From: an archaeon
Lineage (GTDB): Archaea; Iainarchaeota; Iainarchaeia; Iainarchaeales; 1-14-0-10-31-34
Assembly: GCA_024277355.1 (NCBI GenBank)
Contig: JAJRVL010000011.1
Span: forward strand, 79,365 to 111,364
DNA length: 32,000 nucleotides
Direction: 5' to 3'
Part shown: one piece after another, positions 1-29,961 of the stretch
Layout: each line of letters begins with the position of its first letter
Position numbering within the stretch: position 1 is the stretch's first letter
Position numbers and translations under genes: made by a program
The notes under the pieces: generated by a model
Database searches by the model: none
Told to the model about the DNA's origin: nothing
Seen by the model: only the letters and a program-made list of their open reading frames with translations

Positions 1-1392
1 GCATCCAACAACACAAGGTTTGCCCATTCCTCTTGCAACAACAGCAGCATGAGAAGTGTTTCCTCCTCTGCAAGTTAAAATTCCTTTTGATGCAATCATT
101 CCATGAATATCTTCAGGAGAAGTTTCATGTCTGACTAAAATTACGTTTCCTTTTTCGCTTTCTTTTTCAGCTGTATTTGCATCAAAAAACATTCTCCCTG
201 ATGCAGCCCCGGGAGAAGCATTTAACCCTAAAGCAATTTCATTTAATTTTTGTTTTGGGTCAATTCTTTTATGGAGCAGTTGATTTAAATCTAAAGGATT
301 AATTCTCAGTAAAGCTTCTTGTTTTGAAATTAGTTTTTCTTCAACTAATTCAACTGCAATTCTAACTGCTGCCTGACCGGTTCTTTTTCCGTTTCTGGTC
401 TGCAGTAAAAATAATTTTTTGTCTTCAATAGTAAATTCAGTGTCCTGCATGTCTTTGTAGTGTTTTTCTAATTTTTCGCATACAGACTTAAATTCTTCAA
501 AAACTTCAGGCATTACTTCATTTAATTCAGCAATTATTCTTGGAGTACGGATTCCTGCAACAACATCCTCGCCTTGAGCATTTAACAAAAATTCTCCATA
601 TAATTTTTTTATTCCATTAGAAGGGTTTCTGGTAAAACACACTCCTGTCCCTGAAGTTTCGCCTAAATTTCCAAAAACCATTTCCTGAATTACTACTCCA
701 GTTCCCCATGAATCAGGAATTTTATTTAATTTACGATAAGTTATTGCTCGTTTATTATTCCATGAATTAAATACAGCCTTAACCGCTAAAATTAATTGTT
801 GTTTTGGTTCTTCAGGAAAAGTGTTTTTTGTTTCTTGTTCAACTAAATTTTTGTATTCTTTAATTATTTTTTTTAGTGATTCAGCAGTTAAATCACAGTC
901 TTTTGTTGTTTCTGTATTTTGTTTTTCTTTTTCTAAGATTTCTTCAAATTTATCGTGTTCTAAATTTAATACAACATTAGAAAACATCTGAATAAATCTT
1001 CTGTAAGAATCTAATACAAATCTTTCATTTTTTGTTTTTTCAATCATTGATTTAATTGTTTTTTCATTTAATCCAAGATTTAATACTGTATCCATCATTC
1101 CAGGCATTGAGGTTCTTGCACCACTTCTAACTGAAACTAATAAGGGGTTTTCTCCTGAAAACTGTTTTTTTGTTTGTTTTTCTAATTGCATTAAAGAGTC
1201 ATTTAATTCTTGTTCTAATCCTTCAGGGAAATCATTTGAATCAAAAAAATTAATACAAGCTTGAGTTGAAATCACAAAACCTTTAGGGACAGGCAAACCT
1301 AATTTAGTCATTTCACATAAATTGCTTCCTTTTCCTCCTAAAAGGTTTTTCATTTCTTTGCTTCCTTCCTCAAAAAAATAAATATACTTCAA
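1..1392 (-). CDS. ppdK: pyruvate, phosphate dikinase, N-terminal ~464 aa (C-terminus runs off the window start)
   Basis: The minus strand is open over 1..1392; I checked every codon and found no stop. It is absent from the ORF track because the window edge truncates it. The translation begins (TTG)KYIYFFEEGSKEMKNLLGGKGSNLCEM and reaches ...TCRGGNTSHAAVVARGMGKPCVVGC, the phospho-histidine swivel motif. The TTG at 1390-1392 is preceded by a GGGGGA SD-like box, and an in-frame TAA lies upstream at 1405-1407. Confidence 0.9.
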   Translation of the reverse strand, partial: MKYIYFFEEGSKEMKNLLGGKGSNLCEMTKLGLPVPKGFVISTQACINFFDSNDFPEGLEQELNDSLMQLEKQTKKQFSGENPLLVSVRSGARTSMPGMMDTVLNLGLNEKTIKSMIEKTKNERFVLDSYRRFIQMFSNVVLNLEHDKFEEILEKEKQNTETTKDCDLTAESLKKIIKEYKNLVEQETKNTFPEEPKQQLILAVKAVFNSWNNKRAITYRKLNKIPDSWGTGVVIQEMVFGNLGETSGTGVCFTRNPSNGIKKLYGEFLLNAQGEDVVAGIRTPRIIAELNEVMPEVFEEFKSVCEKLEKHYKDMQDTEFTIEDKKLFLLQTRNGKRTGQAAVRIAVELVEEKLISKQEALLRINPLDLNQLLHKRIDPKQKLNEIALGLNASPGAASGRMFFDANTAEKESEKGNVILVRHETSPEDIHGMIASKGILTCRGGNTSHAAVVARGMGKPCVVGC

Positions 1393-1533: not shown

Positions 1534-2550
1534 ATGAAAAAAATAAGTATTTTAGGTTCAACCGGAAGCATCGGAACACAGACTTTAGATGTAGTAAGAC
1601 AGCATTCTGATGAATTCAAAGTTTTAGGGTTAGCTGCGTTTAATGAAATAGACAAAATAATTGAACAAATTAATGAATTTAAGCCGGAAAAAGTCTGTTT
1701 GTTTGATGAAAAATCAGCTGAAGAGTTAGCAAAAAAAACTGATGTTGAAGTTGTTTCAGGGATGCAGGGATTAAAAGAAATTGCAGTAATAGAAGAAATT
1801 GAGCAGACAATTGTTTCAGTTGTAGGTGCAATAGGAATTGAGCCGACAATGCATGCAATAAAAAAAGGAAAAAATATTGCTTTAGCAAATAAAGAAACTT
1901 TAGTTTCAGCAGGACAGCCAATAATGAAAGAAGTCAAAAAACAAGGAATTGTATTAATGCCAATTGATTCAGAGCATTCAGCTATATTTCAATGTTTGAA
2001 TGGAGAGGAAAGAAAAAAAGTTTCAAAAGTTTTAATTACTTGTTCTGGCGGGCCGTTTAGAGGGAAAAAAATTTCTGATTTTTATAATGCAACTCCTGAA
2101 CAGGCTTTAGGACATCCAACATGGAGTATGGGTTCAAAAATTACAATTGATTCTTCAACTTTAATGAATAAAGGCCTGGAAGTATTGGAAGCAAAATGGC
2201 TGTATGATTTAGAATTAGAAGAAATTGAAGTAGTAATTCATCCTCAAAGTTTAATTCATTCAATGGTTGAATTTACTGACGGGAGTATTATGGCTCAAAT
2301 TGGAACACACGATATGCGTACTCCCATCCAATATGCTTTAACTTATCCAAAAAGATTAACAAATGAATTTCCAAGATTAAATTTATTTGAAAACAATAAT
2401 TTAACTTTTGAAAAACCTGATTACAAAAATTTTCCGTGTTTAGGTTTTGCTTTTGAAGCAGGAAAACAAAAAGGAACTTTAGCTTCAGCAATGAATGCAG
2501 CAAATGAAATTGCTGTCTGGAGTTTTTTAGATAAAAAAATCAAGTACTGA
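1534..2550 (+). CDS. dxr: 1-deoxy-D-xylulose 5-phosphate reductoisomerase; the ORF ends at an in-frame TGA and the conserved C-terminus continues to 2679
   Basis: Motifs ILGSTGSIGTQTLDV, LANKETLV, PIDSEHSAIFQCL, CSGGPFRG and HPTWSMGSKITIDSSTLMNKGLEVLEA. An AGGAG SD box sits upstream of the ATG. Confidence 0.9.
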   Translation: MKKISILGSTGSIGTQTLDVVRQHSDEFKVLGLAAFNEIDKIIEQINEFKPEKVCLFDEKSAEELAKKTDVEVVSGMQGLKEIAVIEEIEQTIVSVVGAIGIEPTMHAIKKGKNIALANKETLVSAGQPIMKEVKKQGIVLMPIDSEHSAIFQCLNGEERKKVSKVLITCSGGPFRGKKISDFYNATPEQALGHPTWSMGSKITIDSSTLMNKGLEVLEAKWLYDLELEEIEVVIHPQSLIHSMVEFTDGSIMAQIGTHDMRTPIQYALTYPKRLTNEFPRLNLFENNNLTFEKPDYKNFPCLGFAFEAGKQKGTLASAMNAANEIAVWSFLDKKIKY

Positions 2551-2679
2551 GAAATCCCGGAAATAATTAAACAAGTAATGGATTTACATAAAAATACTTT
2601 AAATCCTTCTTTAGAGGATTCACTTGAAGCAGATAAAAAAGCAAGAGAAACAGCAAAAAAAATAATAGAAGAAAAATGA
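2551..2679 (+). other. dxr: in-frame continuation of dxr after TGA 2548-2550 (42 codons, conserved C-terminal helical tail)
   Basis: The same frame reads EIPEIIKQVMDLHKNTLNPSLEDSLEADKKARETAKKIIEEK*. It aligns to the E. coli Dxr tail as I recall it (...FTDIAALNLSVLEKM...VDDVLSVDANAREVARKEV). Confidence 0.75.
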
Positions 2680-2788
2680 GAAAAAATGAAAAAACAGCAG
2701 AGTATTCAGTTATTCAGTAATTGATAATTTAATAAACAAAACAAAAAGAAATTTAAGCATTAAAAGAGTTTAATTACAAAGTGATGAA

Positions 2789-3478
2789 ATGAATTATGCA
2801 GTAATTTGTGCCGGCGGAAAAGGAATAAGAATGGACGCCGGAAAAAACAAAGTGTTCTTAAAAATTAAAGGCAAAGAAATAATTGCAAAAACTATTTTAG
2901 TGTTTGAAAAAGCAAAAGAAATAAACGGAATAATTATTTCAATTGGAAAGAATGACATAAAAGAAATACAGGAAATAATTGAAAAAGAAAAATTTGAAAA
3001 AATTAAAGCAGTAATTGAAGGTGGAAAAGAAAGACAGGATTCCGTTTATAATGGAATAAAAAAATTACAGGAATTTGCAGAAAAAGATGACGTGATTTTA
3101 ATTCATAATGCAGCAAACCCTTTTGTAAAAGAAGAAACAATAAACAACTGCATTAAAGCAGCAAAAGAATTTGGAGCAAGTGTTGCAGCACAAAAAGTAA
3201 AAGACACAATAAAAAAAGTTGATGAAGATTTATTAGTTAAAAAAACATTAAACCGAAAAGAATTATGGCAAATGCAGACTCCGCAGGCAATAATTAACCA
3301 CATTGCATTAAAAGCATTTGAAAAAGCTTATTCAGAAAACTTTTATGGAACAGATGACGTTCAGTTAGTTGAAAGAATTCATGGAAAAATAAAAATAGTT
3401 GAATGTTCATATAAAAACATTAAAATTACAACAAAAGAAGATATAGAATTAGCAGAAAGAATTTTAGATGAAAACTGA
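2789..3478 (+). CDS. ispD: 2-C-methyl-D-erythritol 4-phosphate cytidylyltransferase
   Basis: N-terminal AVICAGGKGIRM nucleotide-binding loop, length 229 aa, and IspD-like ...WQMQTPQ... and ...TDDVQLVE... segments. A GTGAT SD-like box sits upstream. Confidence 0.88.
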   Translation: MNYAVICAGGKGIRMDAGKNKVFLKIKGKEIIAKTILVFEKAKEINGIIISIGKNDIKEIQEIIEKEKFEKIKAVIEGGKERQDSVYNGIKKLQEFAEKDDVILIHNAANPFVKEETINNCIKAAKEFGASVAAQKVKDTIKKVDEDLLVKKTLNRKELWQMQTPQAIINHIALKAFEKAYSENFYGTDDVQLVERIHGKIKIVECSYKNIKITTKEDIELAERILDEN

Positions 3479-3493
3479 TTAAAATGAAAAAAA

Positions 3494-4345
3494 TTGTCAG
3501 GAAATTGTTTAAAAGAAAAAAAAACCCCTAAAAAAATAAATATTCCCAGAAGAAAGTTTCTCAAAACCATAACTATCGGAACTACATCAATATCTTTAGC
3601 TTATCTTTTGAGCTGTTTTCCAATTAAGCTATCTAAACTGCCTATAGAAAAAACCCATCAAACTACATTACTTGGAATGATTCATTTTACAGACATGAAA
3701 TCAAGCAAACAAGAAATTATTAATAAAACAAAAACCAATAAAAATACTTTAAAAAGCTACAATAAAGCACTTGAAGCCATTAAAAGACTGCCTGCTGGTT
3801 CAAGAATATTAATTGAAGATGCTACTCCTTTTTCAGTTAACGGAAAAAAGTATTACAGTATTTTTTCTGTTTTATCTGAAAAAGCAAGAGCAAAAGGATT
3901 AATAGTTGAAAATTATCTTCCAAGAAAAGCAATATTCAGGAGAATTGACGCATACAGTTATTTGATTGAAACATTTTATAAAAATAAAAATCCAGAAATA
4001 ATTAAAGCAAGAAAAAAAGAACTAGCTAAAAAATACAATCTTAGTTCAATAAAAAACATTAATTCTGTTGAAGAAGCAAGCACAAAATTATATCAATATT
4101 TTGAACATATGACAAATTTTTTAATTAAATCTTACAGAAAAAAACCAGCATTAATTATTGCAGGAGATTTACATGTTGCTGCATCAAAAAAATGGCTGAA
4201 AAATGCTGAAGATATAACTCCTAAAAACACCAGAAAATACACTGAAAAAATCATGGCAAATTCAAAACAAGAATTTAAAGAACTAGTTGAATTATTTGAA
4301 AAACACAGAGAAAAAATGGTTAAAAAATTAAAAGTTAACGGATGA
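3494..4345 (+). CDS. hypothetical exported protein with a Tat-like signal; weak TraB/GumN/TIKI-like motifs
   Basis: The N-terminus carries RRKFLKTITIGTTSISLAYLLSC, a twin-arginine consensus followed by a hydrophobic stretch. LLGMIHFTD and ALIIAGDLHVAAS resemble the two His motifs of the TraB/GumN family, recalled from memory and weak. The start is probably TTG 3494, since no ATG occurs before the signal. Confidence 0.5.
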   Translation: MSGNCLKEKKTPKKINIPRRKFLKTITIGTTSISLAYLLSCFPIKLSKLPIEKTHQTTLLGMIHFTDMKSSKQEIINKTKTNKNTLKSYNKALEAIKRLPAGSRILIEDATPFSVNGKKYYSIFSVLSEKARAKGLIVENYLPRKAIFRRIDAYSYLIETFYKNKNPEIIKARKKELAKKYNLSSIKNINSVEEASTKLYQYFEHMTNFLIKSYRKKPALIIAGDLHVAASKKWLKNAEDITPKNTRKYTEKIMANSKQEFKELVELFEKHREKMVKKLKVNG

Positions 4346-4404
4346 ATTAATAGTTAGATAAAAAAAAAAGCAACAATATAAAAAGGATTTTATACATAAT
4401 TTTA

Positions 4405-4935
4405 GTGAGAGTTATGCCATTTAGAGTAGGATTAGGACAAGATTCCCATAGGTTTTCTCACGTGCATGAAAAAAGACCTTTGATTTTAGGCGGAATAGAA
4501 ATTAAAGATTGTTTGGGTTTAAAGGGAAATTCAGATGCAGATGTAATACTTCATGCATTATTTAATTCTCTTGCACAATTAATTGGCTGGAAAAGTTTAG
4601 GAAGCCATGCAGACAAAATGGTTAAAGAACAAGGAATAACTGATTCAAAAGAATACTTAAAAGAACCATTAAAAAAACTAAAAGAAATGAATTATGAAAT
4701 TACAACTGTAAGCATCACACTTGAATGCAAAAAACCAAAAATTGATCCGGTATCAAATGAAATAAGAACAAGTGTTGCAAAAATTCTTGGAATAAAAAAA
4801 GAACAAGTAGGAATAATTGCAACAACAGGAGAAAGATTAACTGCTTTTGGAAGAGGGGAAGGAATACAAGCATTTACAGTGATAACAGCAATACATAAAG
4901 ACATCAAAAAATTTACAGGAAAAAAAAATAAATAA
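4405..4935 (+). CDS. ispF: 2-C-methyl-D-erythritol 2,4-cyclodiphosphate synthase (likely ATG start at 4414)
   Basis: FRVGLGQDSHRF and GNSDADVILHAL are the metal and substrate motifs of IspF. Length is about 173 aa. Confidence 0.9.
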   Translation: MRVMPFRVGLGQDSHRFSHVHEKRPLILGGIEIKDCLGLKGNSDADVILHALFNSLAQLIGWKSLGSHADKMVKEQGITDSKEYLKEPLKKLKEMNYEITTVSITLECKKPKIDPVSNEIRTSVAKILGIKKEQVGIIATTGERLTAFGRGEGIQAFTVITAIHKDIKKFTGKKNK

Positions 4936-5004
4936 ATAAATTCGTTCTTTGACGTAATATGCTTGTTAAATCAACGTAAGGTTTAAATAGTTTGAGCTAT
5001 AATA

Positions 5005-6828
5005 TTGGTATTTCGGGAAAAGATTTTTATGGATAAAAATGAATTAAATTTTGGAAAATTACTGGAAAAAATTGATTCTCCAGCAGACTTAAAAAAACTA
5101 AAAGTTGAAGAATTAGAAGAATTGTCTAAAGAAGTAAGAGAAGTTTTAATTAAAACCTGTTCAGCTAACGGAGGACATATTGGGGCAAATTTAGGAGTAG
5201 TTGAATTAAGCATTGCATTGCATTATGTTTTTAATTCTCCTCAAGACAAATTTTTGTTTGATACAAGCCATCAAAGTTATACTCACAAATTATTGACTGG
5301 AAGGAAAAAAGATTTCCATACAATCTGCACTCCAAAAGGAATTCCAAGATTTACAGTAAGAAATGAAACTCCATTTGATAACTGGAGTGCAGGCCATGCT
5401 TCAACTGCATTAAGCGGAGCAATGGGAATGGCTGAAGCAAGAAAAACAAACAAACAAGAATATGAAGTAGTAGCAGTAACAGGCGACGGAGCATTAACCG
5501 GCGGAATGTGTTATGAAGCACTAAATAATATCGGGTATAACCAGACAGATGTAATTTTAATTTTAAATGACAACAAAATGAGCATTTCTCCTAATGTAGG
5601 TGCAATGTATAAACATTTGAAAAAGCTGTCAATGTTTGCAGACGAAAAAATTCCACGAAGAGAAGTAGGAACAATATTTGAAAAATTAGGAATTCAATAT
5701 TACGGGCCGGTTGACGGCCATAACGTAAAAAAATTAGTTGAAGAATTAGAAAATTTAAAAGACTTAAAAGGACCAAAATTGCTTCATGTATTAACCATTA
5801 AAGGAAAAGGAATGGAATACATGGAAAACGATAAAGCAACATGGCATGAGCACCCTGCATTTGATGTTGAAACCGGCCAGCCAATAAAAAAAGGACCTGC
5901 AAAAATAGAAAAAATTGCAGTTCAGGCTTTAATGGAATTAGCAGAACAAGATAAATCAATTGTGGGAATTACAGCAGCAATGCCTGCAGGAACCGCTTTA
6001 ATTGAATTCAGCAAAAAATTCCCTGACAGATTTTATGATGTAGGAATAGCAGAAGAACACGCAGTTACTTTTGCAGCAGGATTAGCTGCAGAAAAAACAA
6101 AACCTTTTGTAGTAATTTACAGTCCTTTTTTGCAGAGAGCTTTTGATCAGGTAGCACATGATGTTGCATTACAGGATTTGCCGGTAAAATTATTGGTTCC
6201 AAAAGCAGCAATAACCGGAGACGGCCCAACACAAGGAGGAATCCTTGACTTCAGTTATCTGAGAATTATTCCAAACTTAATTGTAATGGCGCCAAAAGAT
6301 GAAAACGAATTAAGACATATGATTAAAACCGCACAAGAATACAATAAAGGACCAATTAGTGTCAGATACCCAAAAGGAAATGCTTTAGGAGTAGAATTAG
6401 ATAAAGAAATGAAATCAATTGAAATAGGAAAAGCTGAAATGATTAAAGAAGGAAAAGACATTTCTTTGATTAGTATTGGATTTATGTTAAAAGAAACAGT
6501 TGAAGCTGCTGAGATTTTAAAGAAAGAAGGGATTGATGCTGAAGTAATTAATTCAAGGTTTGTTAAACCATTAGATAGAAAAATGATTTCTGAAAGCCTG
6601 AAAAAAACAGGAAAAGGAATCACAATAGAAGAAAATATTCTTCCCGGAGGGTTTGGTTCAGCTGTCTTGGAAATGCTTGAAGCTAAAGGACTAAATGAAG
6701 TTGTATTGCAGAGAATAGGCGCACCAGACGAATATATTGGTTATGACAGTCCAAATGAAATCAAAAAACAGTTTGGAATGGATGCAGAAAGCATAGTAAA
6801 AAAAGTTAAAAAAATGCTTGGAAAATAA
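5005..6828 (+). CDS. dxs: 1-deoxy-D-xylulose-5-phosphate synthase (likely ATG start at 5029)
   Basis: GGHIGANLGVVELSIALHYVF, SHQSYTHKLLTGR, the TPP motif VAVTGDGALTGGMCYEALNN, and the transketolase-like C-terminal domains. About 600 aa. Confidence 0.93.
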   Translation: MVFREKIFMDKNELNFGKLLEKIDSPADLKKLKVEELEELSKEVREVLIKTCSANGGHIGANLGVVELSIALHYVFNSPQDKFLFDTSHQSYTHKLLTGRKKDFHTICTPKGIPRFTVRNETPFDNWSAGHASTALSGAMGMAEARKTNKQEYEVVAVTGDGALTGGMCYEALNNIGYNQTDVILILNDNKMSISPNVGAMYKHLKKLSMFADEKIPRREVGTIFEKLGIQYYGPVDGHNVKKLVEELENLKDLKGPKLLHVLTIKGKGMEYMENDKATWHEHPAFDVETGQPIKKGPAKIEKIAVQALMELAEQDKSIVGITAAMPAGTALIEFSKKFPDRFYDVGIAEEHAVTFAAGLAAEKTKPFVVIYSPFLQRAFDQVAHDVALQDLPVKLLVPKAAITGDGPTQGGILDFSYLRIIPNLIVMAPKDENELRHMIKTAQEYNKGPISVRYPKGNALGVELDKEMKSIEIGKAEMIKEGKDISLISIGFMLKETVEAAEILKKEGIDAEVINSRFVKPLDRKMISESLKKTGKGITIEENILPGGFGSAVLEMLEAKGLNEVVLQRIGAPDEYIGYDSPNEIKKQFGMDAESIVKKVKKMLGK

Positions 6829-7280: not shown

Positions 7281-8120
7281 TTACAAAAAATCCCTTGATT
7301 TTTTCCATTCAATTTCAGCTTTCTCACAAAAAGAAATAATTTTTTGTTTTTGTTCTGAAACTAAACCTTTCCAGTCAAACAAAACAAAATCAACTTTTTC
7401 AGAAGTCTGTTTAATCATTTGTTCAAATAAAACAAAATCAACTTCATTAACATAATATTTAGATAAAATATGAGAAACCGCAATATCTGTTCTGGCCATT
7501 ACTTTAGAAAAAGAAGGACAATAATGGGTTCCGCCTACTCCAATTGCTGTCTTGAAATTTGAATTAAAATTAAAAAAAGAATCCATAATAGAAAAAGCAA
7601 TTATTTTTCCTGCCTGCTTATTTTTCCATTCGGTTTCATTGCTTCCAATTTCAATAAAAACTGCAGGTTTAGACAAAAAAGGGCCGTGATGAGTTTGCTC
7701 CATTAAAACAGGCCAGTCAAAATTTTCTTTTTTTGTTTGTTCAAGTAAATTCAAAAAAAAGTTTTTCATTACTAAAGAAGAAACTGAAACTAAAGTTTTT
7801 TCTTTTCCGCCTAAATCAGCTTTACTAAAATTTCCTATTGGGTGAACAGAAAAAGTTTTTTGTCCTGATTCACTTGAATGCTTTGAAGCAAAAATAAACA
7901 AATCAGTTTCTAATTCATCTAAAAAATCTGCGGTAACTTGTTTTTCATTAATTAAAATTAAATCAAAAATTTGTTTTTCATTAGAAAAAGAATAAATTGA
8001 ATTTGAATTAAATTGTTTTTCTGTTTTCTTAAAATCAAAGCATTCAATTAAATTAGAATAAATGTTTAATCCTGCTAAATCTGTTTTAGAAACAATAATT
8101 GAAATTTTATTAAAGTTCAT
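7281..8120 (-). CDS. dtdA: D-aminoacyl-tRNA deacylase, archaeal type (DtdA/DTD2-like)
   Basis: Length is about 279 aa. The N-terminus is IIVSKTDLAGLNI and later segments read ...THHGP... and ...GVGGTHYCP..., matching the archaeal DtdA family as I recall it. Confidence 0.75.
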   Translation of the reverse strand: MNFNKISIIVSKTDLAGLNIYSNLIECFDFKKTEKQFNSNSIYSFSNEKQIFDLILINEKQVTADFLDELETDLFIFASKHSSESGQKTFSVHPIGNFSKADLGGKEKTLVSVSSLVMKNFFLNLLEQTKKENFDWPVLMEQTHHGPFLSKPAVFIEIGSNETEWKNKQAGKIIAFSIMDSFFNFNSNFKTAIGVGGTHYCPSFSKVMARTDIAVSHILSKYYVNEVDFVLFEQMIKQTSEKVDFVLFDWKGLVSEQKQKIISFCEKAEIEWKKSRDFL

Positions 8121-8137: not shown

Positions 8138-8608
8138 TTATTTTTTATAACTTAAGGATAACTGGCCAAAAACATCTTCTAAATTATTTAAAGTTTGAAT
8201 TAAGTTTTTTGTAACGTAATGATTGAAAGATGCTTTGAGGTCATCTCGTTCAGCAAAAGGCGCAGGATTAAATAAATACGCCTGTTTTTTTCTAACTAAT
8301 AAATCAAATTCTTTCATTCGGTTTAAATGATATCTTAAAAGTTTTTCAGAGATTTTTTTTGAATTCTTTTTTTTAATATAAGACTGGATGTTTGGAACAG
8401 TAGGAAGCGTTTTAGAAAAATTCAAATAAAATAATGCATCTAATACATCTAAAACAGTGGTTCTGGATTCTTTTTCTGAAAGCAAACCAAAAGACAAAGC
8501 AAACCACCTTAACATTGAACGTTTAGTTAATTTTACATTAGGGGGGAAATCCATTGATTTAATTATGAAAGTTTTTCTAACTAAACAGCTTTCAGGTAAT
8601 TCAGACAA
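8138..8608 (-). CDS. hypothetical winged-helix-like protein
   Basis: 156-aa ORF with a TTG start. The segment EKLLRYHLNRMKEFDLLVRKKQAYLFNP resembles a wHTH recognition helix plus wing. No specific family recognised. Confidence 0.45.
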   Translation of the reverse strand: MSELPESCLVRKTFIIKSMDFPPNVKLTKRSMLRWFALSFGLLSEKESRTTVLDVLDALFYLNFSKTLPTVPNIQSYIKKKNSKKISEKLLRYHLNRMKEFDLLVRKKQAYLFNPAPFAERDDLKASFNHYVTKNLIQTLNNLEDVFGQLSLSYKK

Positions 8609-12775: not shown

Positions 12776-13582
12776 TTATTTTTCATTAATTATTTTTAGT
12801 AAAGCTTCATGCACTAAACTATTTGAAGCAAAGCAGTCAATTGGCAAAGGCTTTAATTCTGTTTCAGAATCAGGATCAGAAACTTTTCCGCCGGCTTCCT
12901 GAACTAATAAAGCACCAGCACATAAATCCCATGGCTTTAAATGATATTCAAGATAGGCATCAACCCTTCCGCAAGCAATATAAGCTAAATCTAATGCAGC
13001 CGAACCGCTTCTTCTGATATCTTTAATTTTATACAACAGTCTTCTTACTGCATTTAAAGTGAATTCCATTTTTTCTCCTCTATTATAAGAAAAACCAGTG
13101 TTAAGCAAAATGCGGATTAATTCAGAATTCTGAGAAACAGAAATTTTGTTTCCGTTCAAAAAAGCACCTTTTCCTTTTTCTGCAGTAAATAATTCATTTA
13201 AAACCGGATCAAAAATTACTCCAAGAATTGTTTGTTCTTTTTTCTTTAAAGCAATTGAAACACAAAAATGAGGATAATTATGTGCAAAGTTTACTGTTCC
13301 ATCTAAAGGATCAACAACCCACAAAAAATCAGCTAATTCATAGCCTCTAGGAGTTTCTTCAGCTAAAATTTCATGCGAAGGAAAAGCTTTCAGAATTGTT
13401 TCTTTAATTATTTTTTCTGCTTCAAAATCCGCTTTAGTTACAATATCCCTTTTGCCTTTGTATTTAACTTTATTTAAGTCAGTGAATTTTCCCCTGTAAG
13501 ACAAAATTACAGTTCCTGCTTTTTTTGCTGCAAGAACTGCTGTTTTCATAAACTCTGACTGCATAACAAAACAAAAGAACAA
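12776..13582 (-). CDS. suhB: inositol monophosphatase / FBPase-family phosphatase (likely ATG start at 13549)
   Basis: Motifs ILAEE, WVVDPLDGTVNF and SGSAALDLAYIACGRVDAY. Confidence 0.85.
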   Translation of the reverse strand: MFFCFVMQSEFMKTAVLAAKKAGTVILSYRGKFTDLNKVKYKGKRDIVTKADFEAEKIIKETILKAFPSHEILAEETPRGYELADFLWVVDPLDGTVNFAHNYPHFCVSIALKKKEQTILGVIFDPVLNELFTAEKGKGAFLNGNKISVSQNSELIRILLNTGFSYNRGEKMEFTLNAVRRLLYKIKDIRRSGSAALDLAYIACGRVDAYLEYHLKPWDLCAGALLVQEAGGKVSDPDSETELKPLPIDCFASNSLVHEALLKIINEK

Positions 13583-15924: not shown

Positions 15925-16923
15925 ATGTTTGCATCTGAAATAAATAAATTATTAAATTTAGTTTCCAGAAGCTTTACGCTTTGTATTCCGCGTCTTCCAA
16001 AACAAGTCAGAAACGAAGTAGGAAACTTTTATCTTTTATGCAGGTATGCAGACTCAATCGAAGACTCAAAAATTTCATTTACTGACAAAAAAAAGTACTT
16101 TAAAAGGTATTTAACCTGCCTTAAACAAGAAGACTTAAACAAAATGAACACGTTATCGGCTGAATTAACTCCTAAAATTCTAAACAAAAATGATCAAAAA
16201 ATGTTTAAGCGGTTTTCTAAAGTATTTAAGCAGTTTGTGGGTTTTGACGAAAAATCAAAAAAAATTGCTTTAAAATGGCTAAAAGAAATGACTAAAGGAA
16301 TGGCTAAATACTCTAAAAAAGAAATTGAAAATTTTTTGGATTTAGATAATTATTGTTATTATGTTGCAGGCACAGTTGGTTTTTATATTACGCAAATCAC
16401 CGACCATAAATTTAATTTACATAAATATGATTTTTTGTTATCTAAATGCGAAGATTTTGGTTTATTACTTCAGAAAGTAAATATTATACGGGATTTTTCA
16501 AAAGACTATGAAAATGGAAAAACCTTCTGGCCTAAATCACTTTTTAAAAAACACAACATGGAAATAAAAGATGCATTTAAAAATAAAAATGACTTAAAAA
16601 GAAAACAAATTTTGTCTGAAATGATTAAAAGCACTGAACCGCATATTAAAAATACGCTTGAATACTTAAAAAATTTGCCTGCTGAATTAAAATTTGTCTG
16701 GGCAATTCCTTTTTATATGGCAATTCCAACACTGTTAAAGTGTTATGGTAACGACGAAATTTTTGATCCGCAAAAAAAAGTAAAAATTGGAAAAATCCAG
16801 ACAACTCAAATAATTTCATCTTTAAACAAAAAAATTTCTTCAGAACAATTTTTTGAAGAATATCTTATTGCTTTAAATGAAAAAAACTCACAAGGACTAA
16901 ATTTAAATCTTCAACTAAAATAA
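15925..16923 (+). CDS. squalene synthase-like head-to-head prenyl diphosphate synthase (SQS/PSY family)
   Basis: First Asp-rich box YADSIED, then YCYYVAGTVG, then FGLLLQKVNIIRDFSKDYENGKTFWP. The last closely resembles the SQS signature GLFLQKTNIIRDYLED...FWP. Confidence 0.8.
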   Translation: MFASEINKLLNLVSRSFTLCIPRLPKQVRNEVGNFYLLCRYADSIEDSKISFTDKKKYFKRYLTCLKQEDLNKMNTLSAELTPKILNKNDQKMFKRFSKVFKQFVGFDEKSKKIALKWLKEMTKGMAKYSKKEIENFLDLDNYCYYVAGTVGFYITQITDHKFNLHKYDFLLSKCEDFGLLLQKVNIIRDFSKDYENGKTFWPKSLFKKHNMEIKDAFKNKNDLKRKQILSEMIKSTEPHIKNTLEYLKNLPAELKFVWAIPFYMAIPTLLKCYGNDEIFDPQKKVKIGKIQTTQIISSLNKKISSEQFFEEYLIALNEKNSQGLNLNLQLK

Positions 16924-18892: not shown

Positions 18893-19420
18893 CTATTTTT
18901 TTATAAATTCAGTCCATTTCTTAAGTGAAGAAACTGCATTAATCATTTTAGGCATATTTTGTTTTATGAATTTGTTTTTCTCTAAATCGGTTTTGGGTTT
19001 TTGTTTTTTGTAGTTTTCATAAACTTGTTTCCCATTAAAATCAACAAAAGCAATTCTTGCACTAAAATTATTTTCTTTCAGCATCACTGAATCCCCAGTT
19101 ATTACTGCAATATGAAATGGATGAGAAAGTAAAGATTCTGCTAACTGGTTTGAAGTTTTTATTTTTTTTCTTTTTAAGTCTTTTTTTAATTCATTAAAAT
19201 CAGCAAAAAAATAAAATCCGCCTTTAGGTTTAGTTGCTTTTATTCCTTTAATTTCATTAAATTGTTCACTGAAATATTTTCCTGTCATTTCATGAATTTT
19301 TCTTGTTATTTCAAAGTATTCTTCTATTTCTTTGTTTTTTGAATAAGCAGTTATCCCTGCAAACTGAATTGGAGTTGAAACATTAGAGTAAATTGTTGCT
19401 GCAACTTTTTTGAAATCCAA
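18893..19420 (-). CDS. aminotransferase C-terminal part, in frame with 19427-20209 and separated from it by TAA plus 2 codons
   Basis: Read-through gives ...LPKNCSK*LSLDFKKVAATIYSNVSTPIQFAGITAY.... The total length of 439 codons fits a full-length aminotransferase. Confidence 0.7.
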   Translation of the reverse strand: MDFKKVAATIYSNVSTPIQFAGITAYSKNKEIEEYFEITRKIHEMTGKYFSEQFNEIKGIKATKPKGGFYFFADFNELKKDLKRKKIKTSNQLAESLLSHPFHIAVITGDSVMLKENNFSARIAFVDFNGKQVYENYKKQKPKTDLEKNKFIKQNMPKMINAVSSLKKWTEFIKK

Positions 19421-19426
19421 ACTTAA

Positions 19427-20209
19427 TTATTTTGAACAGTTTTTTGGTAAAATACAGTGCCCTAATCTATATCCCCCTGCTGACCTGTCTTTAGATAAAC
19501 CATTTGTAACAAAAGTTCCTTCTGGATAAATTTTTCCCATTGAAACAAAATTTCTGAAGTTATAGGAAGTTAAAGCATAAATTTCATCTGCGATAACAAA
19601 AACATTGTGTTTTCTGCATATTTTAGTTATTTCTTCTAATTCTTTTTTTGAATAAAGATTTCCTGTTGGATTATGAGGATTATTCAAAACAAGAATGCGT
19701 TGATCTTTATGCAGTTTAAATAAAAATCCATCTAAATCTTTTGGCTGAATTTTATAATCAAATTCTGGTTTTAAATAAAAAGTATGAAAATGTTTTTTTA
19801 ATAATTTTATTTCAGGATAATAGCCAATCCATGAAGGCGAAGGAATAATTATATCTCCTTTAATTATTTCAAAAATCATGTGAATTAAGGTTTTTGTTCC
19901 TGGGCCAATTATTATCCTTGAAGGATTAATTTCTAATCCAAAATGCTTTTTATTGAATTCTGCAACTTTTTTTCTTAATTCAATTATTCCTTGTGCATCA
20001 GAATAATGGCTTTTATCTGAGTTTTGTCCTAAGGCTTTTGCAATTACTTCTGGGACATGAAAAGGACTTTGACCAAAAGATAAAGCAGAAAAATCAAAAT
20101 TGCATTTCATTTTAGTGCATTTTTTTCTTTGTTCTGCAATTAATATTCCTGTCCTGAGGTTTTCAGGCATTTTAATTGCATTAATTTCTTTTTCAACTAA
20201 AATTTTCAT
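19427..20209 (-). CDS. class I/II (aspartate-family) aminotransferase, N-terminal 260 aa, ending at an in-frame TAA
   Basis: NNPHNPTGN and the PLP-lysine region GLSKDRSAGGYRLG. Confidence 0.8.
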   Translation of the reverse strand: MKILVEKEINAIKMPENLRTGILIAEQRKKCTKMKCNFDFSALSFGQSPFHVPEVIAKALGQNSDKSHYSDAQGIIELRKKVAEFNKKHFGLEINPSRIIIGPGTKTLIHMIFEIIKGDIIIPSPSWIGYYPEIKLLKKHFHTFYLKPEFDYKIQPKDLDGFLFKLHKDQRILVLNNPHNPTGNLYSKKELEEITKICRKHNVFVIADEIYALTSYNFRNFVSMGKIYPEGTFVTNGLSKDRSAGGYRLGHCILPKNCSK

Positions 20210-22337: not shown

Positions 22338-22844
22338 TTGGCTGAAGATATTCTTTTTATGGTAAAAAAATTAAGGGTCGGTTGGTTTTCTTTTACTTGT
22401 GGAGAAGATTCAACAATAGTTTTTTCTGAACTGCTTAATGATCATTATTTTGACTGGATTAAATTAATTGACTTTAAATACATTAAAATTCTGAAATCAA
22501 AAAATGTATTGGATAAATTAGATGTTGCTTTTGTTGAAGGTGCTATTTCAAATGACAAAGACGAAAAATTCCTTAAAGATATAAGAAAAAAATCAAAGAA
22601 AGTTGTTGCAATTGGTTCCTGCGCCTGTAATGGAATGCCTTCAGCTCAAAGAAATGATTTTGATAAAAAAACAGTAAATGAAATTAATTTTTTGCTTAAA
22701 AAATTCAGGCATAAAAAGAAGGTGCTTCCATTAAATAAAATAATCAAAGTTGATGAGTTAGTTAATGGGTGTCCAATGCAGGAAAAAGTTTTCCTTAAAG
22801 TATTAAATGATTTATTAATTGAATTTGGTGTAATTAATGCATAA
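22338..22844 (+). CDS. [NiFe]-hydrogenase small subunit, minimal form with proximal-cluster domain only (likely ATG start at 22359)
   Basis: VGWFSFTCGEDS, VAIGSCACNGMP and VNGCPM correspond to the proximal [4Fe-4S] ligand positions of NuoB-like hydrogenase small subunits. Its stop overlaps the large-subunit ATG (ATGCATAA). Confidence 0.75.
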   Translation: MAEDILFMVKKLRVGWFSFTCGEDSTIVFSELLNDHYFDWIKLIDFKYIKILKSKNVLDKLDVAFVEGAISNDKDEKFLKDIRKKSKKVVAIGSCACNGMPSAQRNDFDKKTVNEINFLLKKFRHKKKVLPLNKIIKVDELVNGCPMQEKVFLKVLNDLLIEFGVINA

Positions 22845-23424
22845 AATCGAGGATATTACAATTGATAGTTTAACTAAAGTTGAAGGGCATTCAGAGGTTA
22901 AAGTAAAAGTTAAAGATAAAAAAGTTCAGGACGTTCAGTTCAATATAATTGAAAATAAAAGATTTTATACTCAGGCAATAAGAGGTAAAAATTTCAGAAT
23001 GATAACTCAGTTAGTTCCAAGAATTTGCGGGACCTGCAGTATTGCTCATTTAATGGCTTGTATTGAAGCAGTAGAAAAAACATTAGATGTAAAAGTATCA
23101 AATCAAACAAAAATTTTAAGGCGGCTTCTTGTTAATGGTTTAATGATCAGAGATCATGCATTGCATTTGTATTTGTTTACTTTGCCTGATGTTTTTGGAG
23201 TGGATTCTGTTTTAGAGTTTGATGAAACAAAACACGAATTACTGCATGATGCATTTAAAGTTAAAGCAGTAGGAAACAAACTTGATACTATTATTGGAGG
23301 AAGAGCAGTTCATGCAACTTTTCCTGCTGTAGGAGGATTTACTCATTTTCCTTCCTTTGAAGAAATCAAAGAAGTAATTAAATTATTAAAAAACTCAAGA
23401 CCTGCAGTATTAAGATTAATTTAA
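22837..23424 (+). CDS. [NiFe]-hydrogenase large subunit, N-terminal 195 aa, ending at an in-frame TAA
   Basis: L1 nickel-binding motif RICGTCSIAH. Confidence 0.85.
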   Translation: MHKIEDITIDSLTKVEGHSEVKVKVKDKKVQDVQFNIIENKRFYTQAIRGKNFRMITQLVPRICGTCSIAHLMACIEAVEKTLDVKVSNQTKILRRLLVNGLMIRDHALHLYLFTLPDVFGVDSVLEFDETKHELLHDAFKVKAVGNKLDTIIGGRAVHATFPAVGGFTHFPSFEEIKEVIKLLKNSRPAVLRLI

Positions 23425-25686: not shown

Positions 25687-26544
25687 ATGTGTGAAGAAAA
25701 AAAATTAAATGAAGAACAAAAACAATTTGTTGAGAGATTAAGAGAAGAGTTGATTATTGGTGGTTATTCTGAAAGAACAACAAAAATGTATCTCCATTAT
25801 TTAAATGATTTTTTTAAGGAAACCGAAAAAACTGTTAAAGAAATATTAAGAGAAGATATTGTAAAATATTTGGCTGCAAAAAGAGAAAAAAGTCATCTGA
25901 CAAATGCTTCACTAGCATTAATTCATGCGTCTTTAAAATTCTTTTTTGACGGAATTCTGAAAAACAAAGTAATGGATGAAATAAAAATTCCAAAAAAAGA
26001 AAAAAAACTGCCTACGATTTTAACTCCGAGAGAAATCAAAATATTAATTAAAACTGCAAAAGCTGGAAGAGACCGAACCATAATCGAATTTCTTTATTCA
26101 ACTGGAATAAGAGTAAGTGAGTGTGCAAATATGAAAATATCAAGTTTAGAATTAAATGAAGGGGTTGCAAGAGTAAAAGGAGGAAAAGGAAAAAAAGATA
26201 GAATAATAATTTTATCAAAAAAATGGATTCATAACTTGAAAAAATACTTGAAAAGAAAAAAAATAACATCTGAGTTTGTTTTCTCTAAAAAAAATGGAAA
26301 ACCAATCACAGGAGACACTATAGAAAGAATGGTAAAAAAATATGCAGAGAAAGCAGGAATCCAGAAAACTGTTACCCCACATGTTTTAAGACATTCTTTT
26401 GCAACTCATTTACTTGAAGGTGGTGAAAACATTAGAAAAATCCAGGAATTATTAGGGCATAGCAATTTGGCTACAACTCAAATTTATACTTTTGTTTCAA
26501 CTGAAGAACTCAAAAAAGTTCAAAGCCCTTTAGATAAGCTTTAG
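25687..26544 (+). CDS. xerA: tyrosine recombinase XerA-like
   Basis: An N-terminal SAM-like domain, then ARVKGGKGKKDRI, HVLRHSFATHLLEGGENIRKIQELLGHSNLATTQIYT. 285 aa. Confidence 0.85.
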   Translation: MCEEKKLNEEQKQFVERLREELIIGGYSERTTKMYLHYLNDFFKETEKTVKEILREDIVKYLAAKREKSHLTNASLALIHASLKFFFDGILKNKVMDEIKIPKKEKKLPTILTPREIKILIKTAKAGRDRTIIEFLYSTGIRVSECANMKISSLELNEGVARVKGGKGKKDRIIILSKKWIHNLKKYLKRKKITSEFVFSKKNGKPITGDTIERMVKKYAEKAGIQKTVTPHVLRHSFATHLLEGGENIRKIQELLGHSNLATTQIYTFVSTEELKKVQSPLDKL

Positions 26545-28910: not shown

Positions 28911-29396
28911 TTATTTTTTGAGTTCTTTAATTCTTTTTTTGTTATCTACAATTTCCATTGCTTTTCCGCATTTTGGGCATTTGAATTGATATTCTGAAGC
29001 AATTTCAAATGGGACATTGTCGCATAATTTTTTACATGTAAAAAACACATAGTCTTTTTCAAATTCAAGTTTTTTTTCTAATTTCTTAATTTCTTCACTT
29101 TGTTCTTCTAATATAAGTTCGGCAATTCTTTTTTCTTTGATTTCCCAGGTATATGAATACCATCCTGTTTTGTTGTTCTTTTTTTTATCATAACAAGCAA
29201 TTCCTCTGTAGTGAAGTCTGTTTAATATTGCTCTTACTTCAGTTATTTTTAATTTGGTTTTTTTTGATATTTCTTCATCGGTAAATTTTTTTTTTTGGTT
29301 TTGACAGGCTTTAATTAAAGGTATTGCATCTTCTCCGCCAGTGTTTATTATAAATTCTTTCGCAATACTTTGTGAAAAAATGTCTTTTCTTGCCAT
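28911..29396 (-). CDS. tfe: transcription factor E, alpha subunit (TFIIE-alpha homolog)
   Basis: A winged helix (TDEEISKKTKLKITEVRAILNRLHYRGI) plus a Zn-ribbon (FFTCKK...FKCPKCG). Confidence 0.85.
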   Translation of the reverse strand: MARKDIFSQSIAKEFIINTGGEDAIPLIKACQNQKKKFTDEEISKKTKLKITEVRAILNRLHYRGIACYDKKKNNKTGWYSYTWEIKEKRIAELILEEQSEEIKKLEKKLEFEKDYVFFTCKKLCDNVPFEIASEYQFKCPKCGKAMEIVDNKKRIKELKK

Positions 29397-29421: not shown

Positions 29422-29961
29422 TTAAACTAATGGGCGTTTTTTAGTTTTTTTTCCTTTTTTTTGTGGAATAATTTTTATTTTGTTATTAGGAAACTTTTTG
29501 TTTAGTTCTTTTCCTTCAAAAACCTCGTGCAGGGTTAATGCTAAAGCAGCAATTTCTGAATGCGGTTGATTTCCTATGGAAATATTGTAGTCGCTTTTTT
29601 CATACACTAATGGAGGGACTTTTTCTGCACCGACGATTATACATATTTTATTTTTTTTTCTTATTTCTTTTATTTTTTTACCTAATAATTCTCCGTACAT
29701 TGTTAAATGAACAATACAGTATTTTTCTTTTTTGATTTTATTTATTTCGTTTTTTATGTTTTCTGCAAACCGTATTTTGAATTTTCCGCCCCAGTTGTTA
29801 ACTATTTTATTAACACTGTCTTCTATTGAATAATCAGTTTCCCCAATTATTGTTATTTTTTCTGCACCTAATGCTCTTGAAGTTAATGCACAATGGGTTG
29901 TTGTTCTGATATCTCTGTAAATTCTGTGCCCTAATCTTAATACTTGAACTTTTTTAACCAT
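29422..29961 (-). CDS. trm56: tRNA (cytidine56-2'-O)-methyltransferase, archaeal SPOUT (aTrm56-like)
   Basis: VLRLGHRIYRDIRTTTHCALTSRALGAEKI matches the aTrm56 N-terminal signature. About 179 aa. Confidence 0.75.
   Translation of the reverse strand: MVKKVQVLRLGHRIYRDIRTTTHCALTSRALGAEKITIIGETDYSIEDSVNKIVNNWGGKFKIRFAENIKNEINKIKKEKYCIVHLTMYGELLGKKIKEIRKKNKICIIVGAEKVPPLVYEKSDYNISIGNQPHSEIAALALTLHEVFEGKELNKKFPNNKIKIIPQKKGKKTKKRPLV

Follow-up and report, generated by a model that had tools for sequence, protein, structure and literature searches.

The stretch of DNA analysed here, the window, is 32,000 nucleotides from contig JAJRVL010000011.1 of the archaeal assembly GCA_024277355.1 (phylum Iainarchaeota, order Iainarchaeales), and close to its start lies a cluster of bacterial-type genes for the methylerythritol phosphate (MEP, or deoxyxylulose phosphate, DOXP) route to isoprenoid precursors. 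The window is C9:79365-111364 of an 11-contig, 1.128-Mb assembly (96% complete, 0.67% contamination), and its source genome (G000; genus g1, family f1, with sister genera g2-g4) was compared within a phylum set of 215 genomes (species) that belong to one class and nearly all to one order. Genes were called from six-frame open reading frames (ORFs) using curated Pfam and NCBIfam equivalog profiles with their cut-offs, giving the following cluster and immediate neighbours.

1-1392, minus strand: pyruvate, phosphate dikinase (PPDK), N-terminal 464 aa, divergent from dxr and leaving the window at its start (TIGR01828, 733 bits)
1534-2550, plus strand: dxr (DXP reductoisomerase) as called (338 aa), in a conserved frame of 1534-2679 (TIGR00243, 462 bits, cut-off 316)
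2789-3478, plus strand: ispD (MEP cytidylyltransferase), 229 aa (PF01128, 199.5 bits; TIGR00453, 206.5 against a cut-off of 181)
3494-4345, plus strand: ORF X, 283 aa, matching no Pfam or NCBIfam family
4405-4935, plus strand: ispF (MEcPP synthase), 176 aa (PF02542, 144 bits; TIGR00151, 152.4 against a cut-off of 116)
5005-6828, plus strand: dxs (DXP synthase), 607 aa (TIGR00204, 721.9 bits, cut-off 466)
7281-8120, minus strand: archaeal D-aminoacyl-tRNA deacylase DtdA (PF04414, 209 bits), which bounds the isoprenoid slot on the right and is conserved there
8138-8608, minus strand: conserved 156-aa ORF, also right flank, found next to DtdA at 61-74% identity in the sister-genus genomes G016, G017 and G018

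A sequence-only reading of the window had claimed that dxr, ispD, ispF and dxs are clustered on one strand, and all four are indeed on the plus strand and above their equivalog cut-offs. The catalytic blocks of Dxr (DSEH, HPxW and NKGxE) are intact in the alignment (A1), and in congeners ispD is 75-78% and Dxs 78-80% identical. The same reading held that ispE, ispG and ispH lie outside the window, and a genome search placed all three on a second contig:

C2:158927-159748: ispH (PF02401, 310 bits)
C2:307943-308757: ispE (CDP-ME kinase), the neighbour of ispG (TIGR00154, 172 bits)
C2:309444-310613: ispG (PF04551, 386 bits)

All seven MEP genes are present in the genome, at three loci, i.e. the C9 cluster, ispE-ispG and ispH. 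Mevalonate (MVA) genes, which the sequence-only reading proposed to seek in the rest of the genome, are missing save for the type-2 isopentenyl diphosphate isomerase (IDI2). HMG-CoA reductase (HMGR) has no PF00368 match in this 96% complete genome, and tblastn with sister-genus proteins found no match at E <1e-3 for HMGS, thiolase or MVK. When all 15 proteins of the MVA interval of G018 were used as tblastn queries, AcnX large and small subunits, UbiD and UbiX had no match, the isopentenyl phosphate kinase (IPK) query reached only another kinase at 24% identity, and no remnants of MVA genes were found, leaving IDI2 (C3:39679-40704, 49% identity by tblastn) as the sole gene of the interval that is retained. 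The genes downstream of precursor synthesis comprise one polyprenyl synthase, geranylgeranylglyceryl phosphate (GGGP) synthase and two UbiA-family prenyltransferases.

This gene content supports the view, put forward in the sequence-only reading, that the lineage would make isopentenyl diphosphate (IPP) as well as dimethylallyl diphosphate (DMAPP) by the bacterial route, pathway function in g1 being predicted from the intact orthologues of its congeners. Dxs would join pyruvate and glyceraldehyde 3-phosphate (GAP), Dxr, IspD, IspE and IspF would turn its product into methylerythritol cyclodiphosphate (MEcPP), and IspG and IspH would reduce MEcPP to IPP and DMAPP, which would pass via the single polyprenyl synthase to GGGP synthase and the UbiA-type prenyltransferases, and so into archaeal ether lipids.

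In genus g1 the MEP genes sit at the chromosomal place where the sister genera have a mevalonate cluster. The slot is bounded on its left by the homologue of a conserved 132-aa ORF (C9:77319-77717) and on its right by DtdA. In G016, G017 and G018 it holds an archaeal-type MVA supercluster, of 12 genes as read in G018, in the order HMGR (class II)-HMGS-thiolase-DUF35-MVK-unknown 432-aa gene-UbiX-UbiD-type decarboxylase-AcnX large-AcnX small-IPK-IDI2. G017 has this gene set too, with the positions of MVK and the 432-aa gene exchanged, and these two genes were not seen in the stretch of G016 examined. The cluster corresponds to the archaeal-type mevalonate pathway that runs via trans-anhydromevalonate phosphate and employs the AcnX dehydratase, a UbiD-type decarboxylase with UbiX, and IPK (PMC11052028); it is non-homologous to MEP and, IDI2 apart, absent from the source genome. 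In the source genome the slot holds PPDK and dxr-ispD-X-ispF-dxs. PPDK adjoins dxr in the g1 congeners wherever one contig holds both genes, and its co-arrival with the MEP genes was considered and rejected, as other contigs of G016 and G018 carry it and the MEP-bearing, donor-like genomes G174 and G179 lack it. PPDK is therefore a resident gene that was relocated.

A strong Dxr match is present in 31 of the 215 genomes, IspE and Dxs are above cut-off in 29 and 28, respectively, the three sets being essentially identical, and HMGR is present in 131. MEP and HMGR are mutually exclusive across these genomes, with the exception of G157, the only one in which Dxr and HMGR occur together. G157 is a metagenome-assembled genome (MAG) of family f19 with 5% contamination, and its dxr lies on a 6.4-kb contig (L050, G157:C27:1-6370) whose PPDK and dxr are 78-84% identical to those of g1; this contig is probably mis-binned and from a g1 organism. 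Within family f1 the division follows genus boundaries, dxr, ispE, ispG, ispH and dxs being present in all six g1 species and HMGR in none (0/6), and g2-g4 having no MEP genes and HMGR in 3/3.

A second, independent in-place exchange is seen in family f14, between the congeners G148 and G149, whose ribosomal-protein branches are 0.12 each. They have common flanks, IDI2 and a 192-aa ORF (81-88% identical), between which G148 carries a classical MVA set (HMGR, HMGS, thiolase, DUF35, MVK, MVD and PMK) and G149 carries ispE-ispH-IMPase-dxr-ispD-ispF-dxs-ispG-pta-tpi. There is no sign in this pair that flanking genes were imported by homologous recombination, the flanks being 59-90% identical with no gradient toward the junctions. 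Two MVA variants occur in one order, the archaeal type of the f1 genera (AcnX, UbiD/UbiX, IPK) and the classical MVK-PMK-MVD type of G148 in f14, and the clusters of both adjoin IDI2 (L172/L173, G018:C2:206959-219399; L238/L239, G148:C4:25888-41815).

The species tree, calculated from 17 ribosomal proteins of 52 genomes (3036 columns) and rooted on other orders, resolves the f1 genera as (g2,((g3,g4),g1)) with support of 98-100, and groups f1, f30 and f32 in one part of the tree at a node with support of 90. On this tree the MEP distribution requires at least six changes. In a Dxs tree of 106 sequences all Iainarchaeal Dxs, together with that of one other archaeon, are on one side of a branch with support of 89. 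On the opposite side are 78 sequences, of which 77 are bacterial or unlabelled (Bacillota, Thermodesulfobacteriota, Nitrospirota, FCB group and others) and one is from a MAG labelled Methanosarcinales. No specific bacterial sister of Iainarchaeal Dxs is evident in this tree, whose bacterial sample was confined to the top 80 among 599 pattern-matched stretches. Among the matches listed the nearest non-archaeal Dxs come from a wide range of bacterial phyla and reach 43-49% identity; other Iainarchaeal Dxs are 59-67% identical to that of g1 and form a clade enclosing it. The tree of concatenated Dxr, IspD, IspF and Dxs, calculated by a careful method, has the topology (f32,(f30-g69,g1)) with support of 100/99, and g1 IspH is 55-58% identical to that of g69 and 28% to that of f32.

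Because the g1 MEP genes branch inside the Iainarchaeal clade, the immediate donor would be another archaeon of the same phylum, and the type of the enzymes points to an origin that is ultimately bacterial. The inter-domain transfer proposed in the sequence-only reading is in this way upheld for the enzymes and refined for the proximate donor. That reading had also named two findings that together would refute it, a branching of the four genes within a well-described clade of archaea and the presence of the whole mevalonate pathway in the same genome; a clade of archaea is what the Dxs and concatenated trees give, and such a pathway is not found.

We put at about 0.82 the probability that in g1 the MEP route replaced the MVA route in place, with genes from another Iainarchaeal lineage and ultimately from bacteria. 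In this account the g1 ancestor would have lost its resident 12-gene archaeal-type mevalonate supercluster, and dxr-ispD-ispF-dxs now occupy the same interval between the 132-aa ORF and DtdA. The genes would derive from a seven-gene cassette passed between Iainarchaeal lineages, the nearest being f30 g69 and f32, in which the seven genes form one cassette. This would have inserted into the resident isoprenoid locus or next to it, with loss of MVA afterwards, and the MEP genes of g1 would later have been scattered to three sites. At present ispE-ispG, ispH and idi2 lie at three sites other than that of the core cluster. Cassette transfer would be the most economical account of the data.

Several observations weigh against this reading, among them lesions in two of the seven MEP genes, both private to the source genome. 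In dxr an in-frame TGA at 2548-2550, at a position that is Gly in congeners and consistent with a one-base change, costs Dxr about 42 C-terminal residues (congener Dxr is 381-393 aa), and beyond it the frame stays conserved as far as its natural stop, the TGA of 2677-2679. The ispE gene is divided between two frames within A7-A8 runs (L001, about 1490-1515), its two pieces matching positions 1-79 and 76-273 of TIGR00154; it is intact (282-284 aa) in four of five congeners, and the 283-aa frame of G013 has one in-frame TAA. In this strain the pathway may be less than fully functional. Likewise, neither a glycerol-1-phosphate (G1P) dehydrogenase (PF13685) nor a convincing GpsA-type glycerol-3-phosphate (G3P) dehydrogenase was found in the genome, so that lipid synthesis may be neither complete nor autonomous. 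As to the trees, the pairing of g1 with g69 has support of only 91/94, the bacterial part of the Dxs tree is the selected sample described above, and all trees but the 11-taxon MEP tree were calculated by a quick method.

The lesions admit the view that they are real and that the strain is in decay, taking isoprenoids or lipids from a host, which we consider possible but rather doubtful. DPANN archaea are frequently host-dependent, the missing G1P dehydrogenase would fit, and among the 31 comparable genes (>=200 aa, set against family relatives) only dxr has an internal stop or frameshift, which indicates that the assembly is not generally error-ridden. Yet 31 genes are a small sample, the remaining five MEP genes are intact, dxr keeps its conserved reading frame past the TGA, and the ispE frameshift sits in homopolymers of A7-A8, where sequencing errors classically arise. 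The genome also has another private in-frame stop, a TAA at 19427-19429 of the window that interrupts a class I/II aminotransferase (18893-20209, minus strand). Recoding of TGA as Gly (genetic code 25) was rejected as an explanation, since the natural stop of dxr is itself TGA, the other 30 comparable genes have no internal stop, and the stop in the aminotransferase is TAA.

The main alternative to replacement by transfer, which is less parsimonious and which we judge unlikely, is ancient vertical inheritance, in which MEP and MVA were neighbours at a single locus of an early ancestor of the Iainarchaeota and its descendants each lost one or the other without any transfer within the phylum. 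A single origin is compatible with all Iainarchaeal Dxs, f1, f30 and f32 do fall under one node of the species tree, and in several families both pathways occupy the same slot, next to IDI2 and DtdA, which is what a tandem intermediate would yield. Nevertheless both pathways would have had to persist through many internal nodes, and no credible extant genome has both, the overlap between the 31 MEP and the 131 HMGR genomes being G157. The six or more changes required on the species tree, the difference in pathway between congeners as close as G148 and G149, and the placement of g1 with g69, and not outside f30 and f32, are likewise at odds with vertical descent.

That g1 received the cluster directly and recently from a bacterium is far less probable still: the enzymes are of bacterial type and the best bacterial Dxs among the matches listed reach 43-49% identity, but Iainarchaeal Dxs are closer and enclose those of g1, GC and tetranucleotide usage of the cluster are host-like, and divergence within the genus is similar to that of the flank (75-86% identity for the MEP genes, 75-79% for PPDK). 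That a bacterial fragment was joined to an archaeal contig in assembly or binning is scarcely credible, as nothing speaks for such an artefact beyond the initial surprise of MEP in an archaeon, and the order PPDK/dxr-ispD-ispF-dxs/DtdA, with archaeal genes on both sides, is kept in four independently assembled congeners at 65-86% protein identity.

The sequence-only reading had itself raised the possibility of a chimera, and the contig is not chimeric: besides the recurrence of gene order in independent assemblies, the cluster region has a tetranucleotide profile typical of the genome, its correlation with the genome mean being 0.995. GC along the window is 26-32%, in a fifth congener (G012) the cluster is divided over two contigs in a manner compatible with the common order, and MEP clusters are also found in single-contig genomes of the phylum, e.g. 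G179. The genome encodes a full-length archaeal small-subunit rRNA (1404 bits) as well as GGGP synthase, and the setting is genuinely that of a DPANN archaeon. The archaeal hallmarks that had been claimed, DtdA included, were all located in the window, those further from the cluster being:

25687-26544: XerA-type integrase
28911-29396: TFE-alpha
29422-29961: aTrm56
tRNA-Met: A1:U72, anticodon stem GGG/CCC, i.e. three G:C pairs by the anticodon loop (read by eye)

A broader reading is that Iainarchaeota keep a chromosomal slot near idi2/dtdA in which whole non-homologous isoprenoid pathways are exchanged as cassettes, that MEP displaced MVA in place at least two times independently, and probably six or more, and that no dual-pathway state survives. 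We regard this generalisation as evenly poised between true and false. Three kinds of cassette are seen in the slot, archaeal-type MVA, classical MVA and seven-gene MEP, and in G178 an MEP cassette is followed by homologues of orf125 and IDI2, genes of the MVA-cluster edge. In family f8, which by this reading lost everything else, neither MEP nor MVA genes are found, yet an intact Dxr homologue of about 375-390 aa stands beside DtdA in 20 of 22 genomes (e.g. L046:9478-10605 in G026 and L047:9093-10223 in G030). Its NADPH motif GSTGSIG has become GSNNDIG and the DSEH, HPxW, NKGxE and HPQS blocks are all lost, from which it is a predicted conserved relic of a dead enzyme. G170, of the sister lineage of f8, has the full MEP pathway.

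ORF X, which lies between ispD and ispF, has an N-terminus that resembles a twin-arginine signal (RRKFLK) with a lipobox (LLSC). The genome has no second copy of it, the clusters of relatives contain nothing that corresponds to it, and among 5.8 billion proteins it matches only itself; by these comparisons it is a putative species-specific ORFan outside the MEP pathway. Its candidacy as a missing kinase was rejected, as it has no GHMP signal and the true ispE sits on C2. Intergenic spots of the MEP cluster carry different lineage-specific ORFans in each species, those of congeners (L039:10085-10522, L039:11271-11723, L040:2454-2879 and L037:8524-8961) being very basic proteins of 141-150 aa, of which two pairs are weakly related. 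In three families a gene of the inositol monophosphatase (IMPase) family lies within an MEP cluster or next to one (12776-13582 of the window, minus strand; L041:10185-10991 in G149; L044:12917-13759 in G182). This gene, the tpi and pta of G149 and the PPDK abutting dxr may link the cluster to the supply of pyruvate and GAP for Dxs.

Some 9 kb from the MEP cluster, at 15925-16923 (plus strand), the window has a gene of the squalene/phytoene synthase family (PF00494, 150 bits) that reaches 192 bits with the squalene synthase model, below its cut-off. At 22338-23424 (plus strand) a 168-aa ORF resembling the small subunit of NiFe-hydrogenase is followed by a 195-aa piece of the large subunit that matches only its first ~90 positions, with later frames broken, and the hydrogenase may be degraded. 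The remaining genes of the window are GlnA, an Lrp regulator, pieces of glutamate synthase and of hydrogenase, SerRS and four tRNAs.

The heterogeneity of routes to isoprenoid precursors has been reviewed (PMC13001223), and MEP has been noted in 'a few DPANN' (PMC6107057). MEP/DOXP gene clusters are established in Woesearchaeota (PMC8204110, PMC8421398; Castelle & Banfield 2018, as cited in the first of these, for MEP in this group), and these resemble the case described here in having co-located bacterial-type genes, attributed to horizontal transfer, that give a small DPANN genome its sole means of making IPP and DMAPP. They differ in belonging to another phylum and in the ispDF fusion of subgroup J (PMC8421398), ispD and ispF being separate in the source genome, and neither an MEP cluster at the MVA locus of sister genera nor an archaeal donor of the same phylum is described in those papers. 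MEP was formerly detected only in Woesearchaeales, as stated in a 2025 study that reports complete MEP pathways in the Micrarchaeota orders Norongarragalinales, Zaosheniarchaeales and Micrarchaeales, gained by horizontal transfer after the orders had diversified (PMC12892359). These are again DPANN lineages outside Woesearchaeales with full MEP acquired by transfer, but the study does not mention MEP in Iainarchaeota, where MEP and MVA exclude each other genome by genome. A 2024 survey assigned Iainarchaeota to MVA (PMC10936187), and in the literature on Iainarchaeota/Diapherotrites and MEP we found no report of MEP in the phylum. What is already known is therefore the presence of MEP clusters in DPANN archaea; replacement that is in place, recurrent and mutually exclusive was not found described.

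Compared with the MEP pathway of E. coli, that of the source genome has the same seven enzyme families, matched by equivalog models, with the catalytic blocks of Dxr conserved; it differs in that its genes are at three loci, dxr and ispE bear lesions, and the organism is an archaeon that would use the products for ether lipids. Some bacteria, such as Gram-positive cocci, have had MEP displaced by a transferred MVA pathway. This was likewise a wholesale displacement by a non-homologous pathway through gene transfer, opposite to that in Iainarchaeota in both direction and domain. We know of no report of an incoming isoprenoid pathway taking the chromosomal place of the outgoing one.

In textbooks the lipid divide includes the use of mevalonate by archaea and of MEP by bacteria, a contrast that enters arguments on the last universal common ancestor and early membranes. 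The Iainarchaeal genomes add a shared locus, mutual exclusivity over 215 genomes, recurrence even within one genus and a source of the genes inside the phylum, indicating that a core essential pathway can be exchanged cleanly and repeatedly. Close pairs such as G148/G149, and g1 against g3/g4, allow one to ask what selects the route, whether carbon supply from pyruvate/GAP or from acetyl-CoA, or the cost of Fe-S enzymes. [quoted passage not shown]

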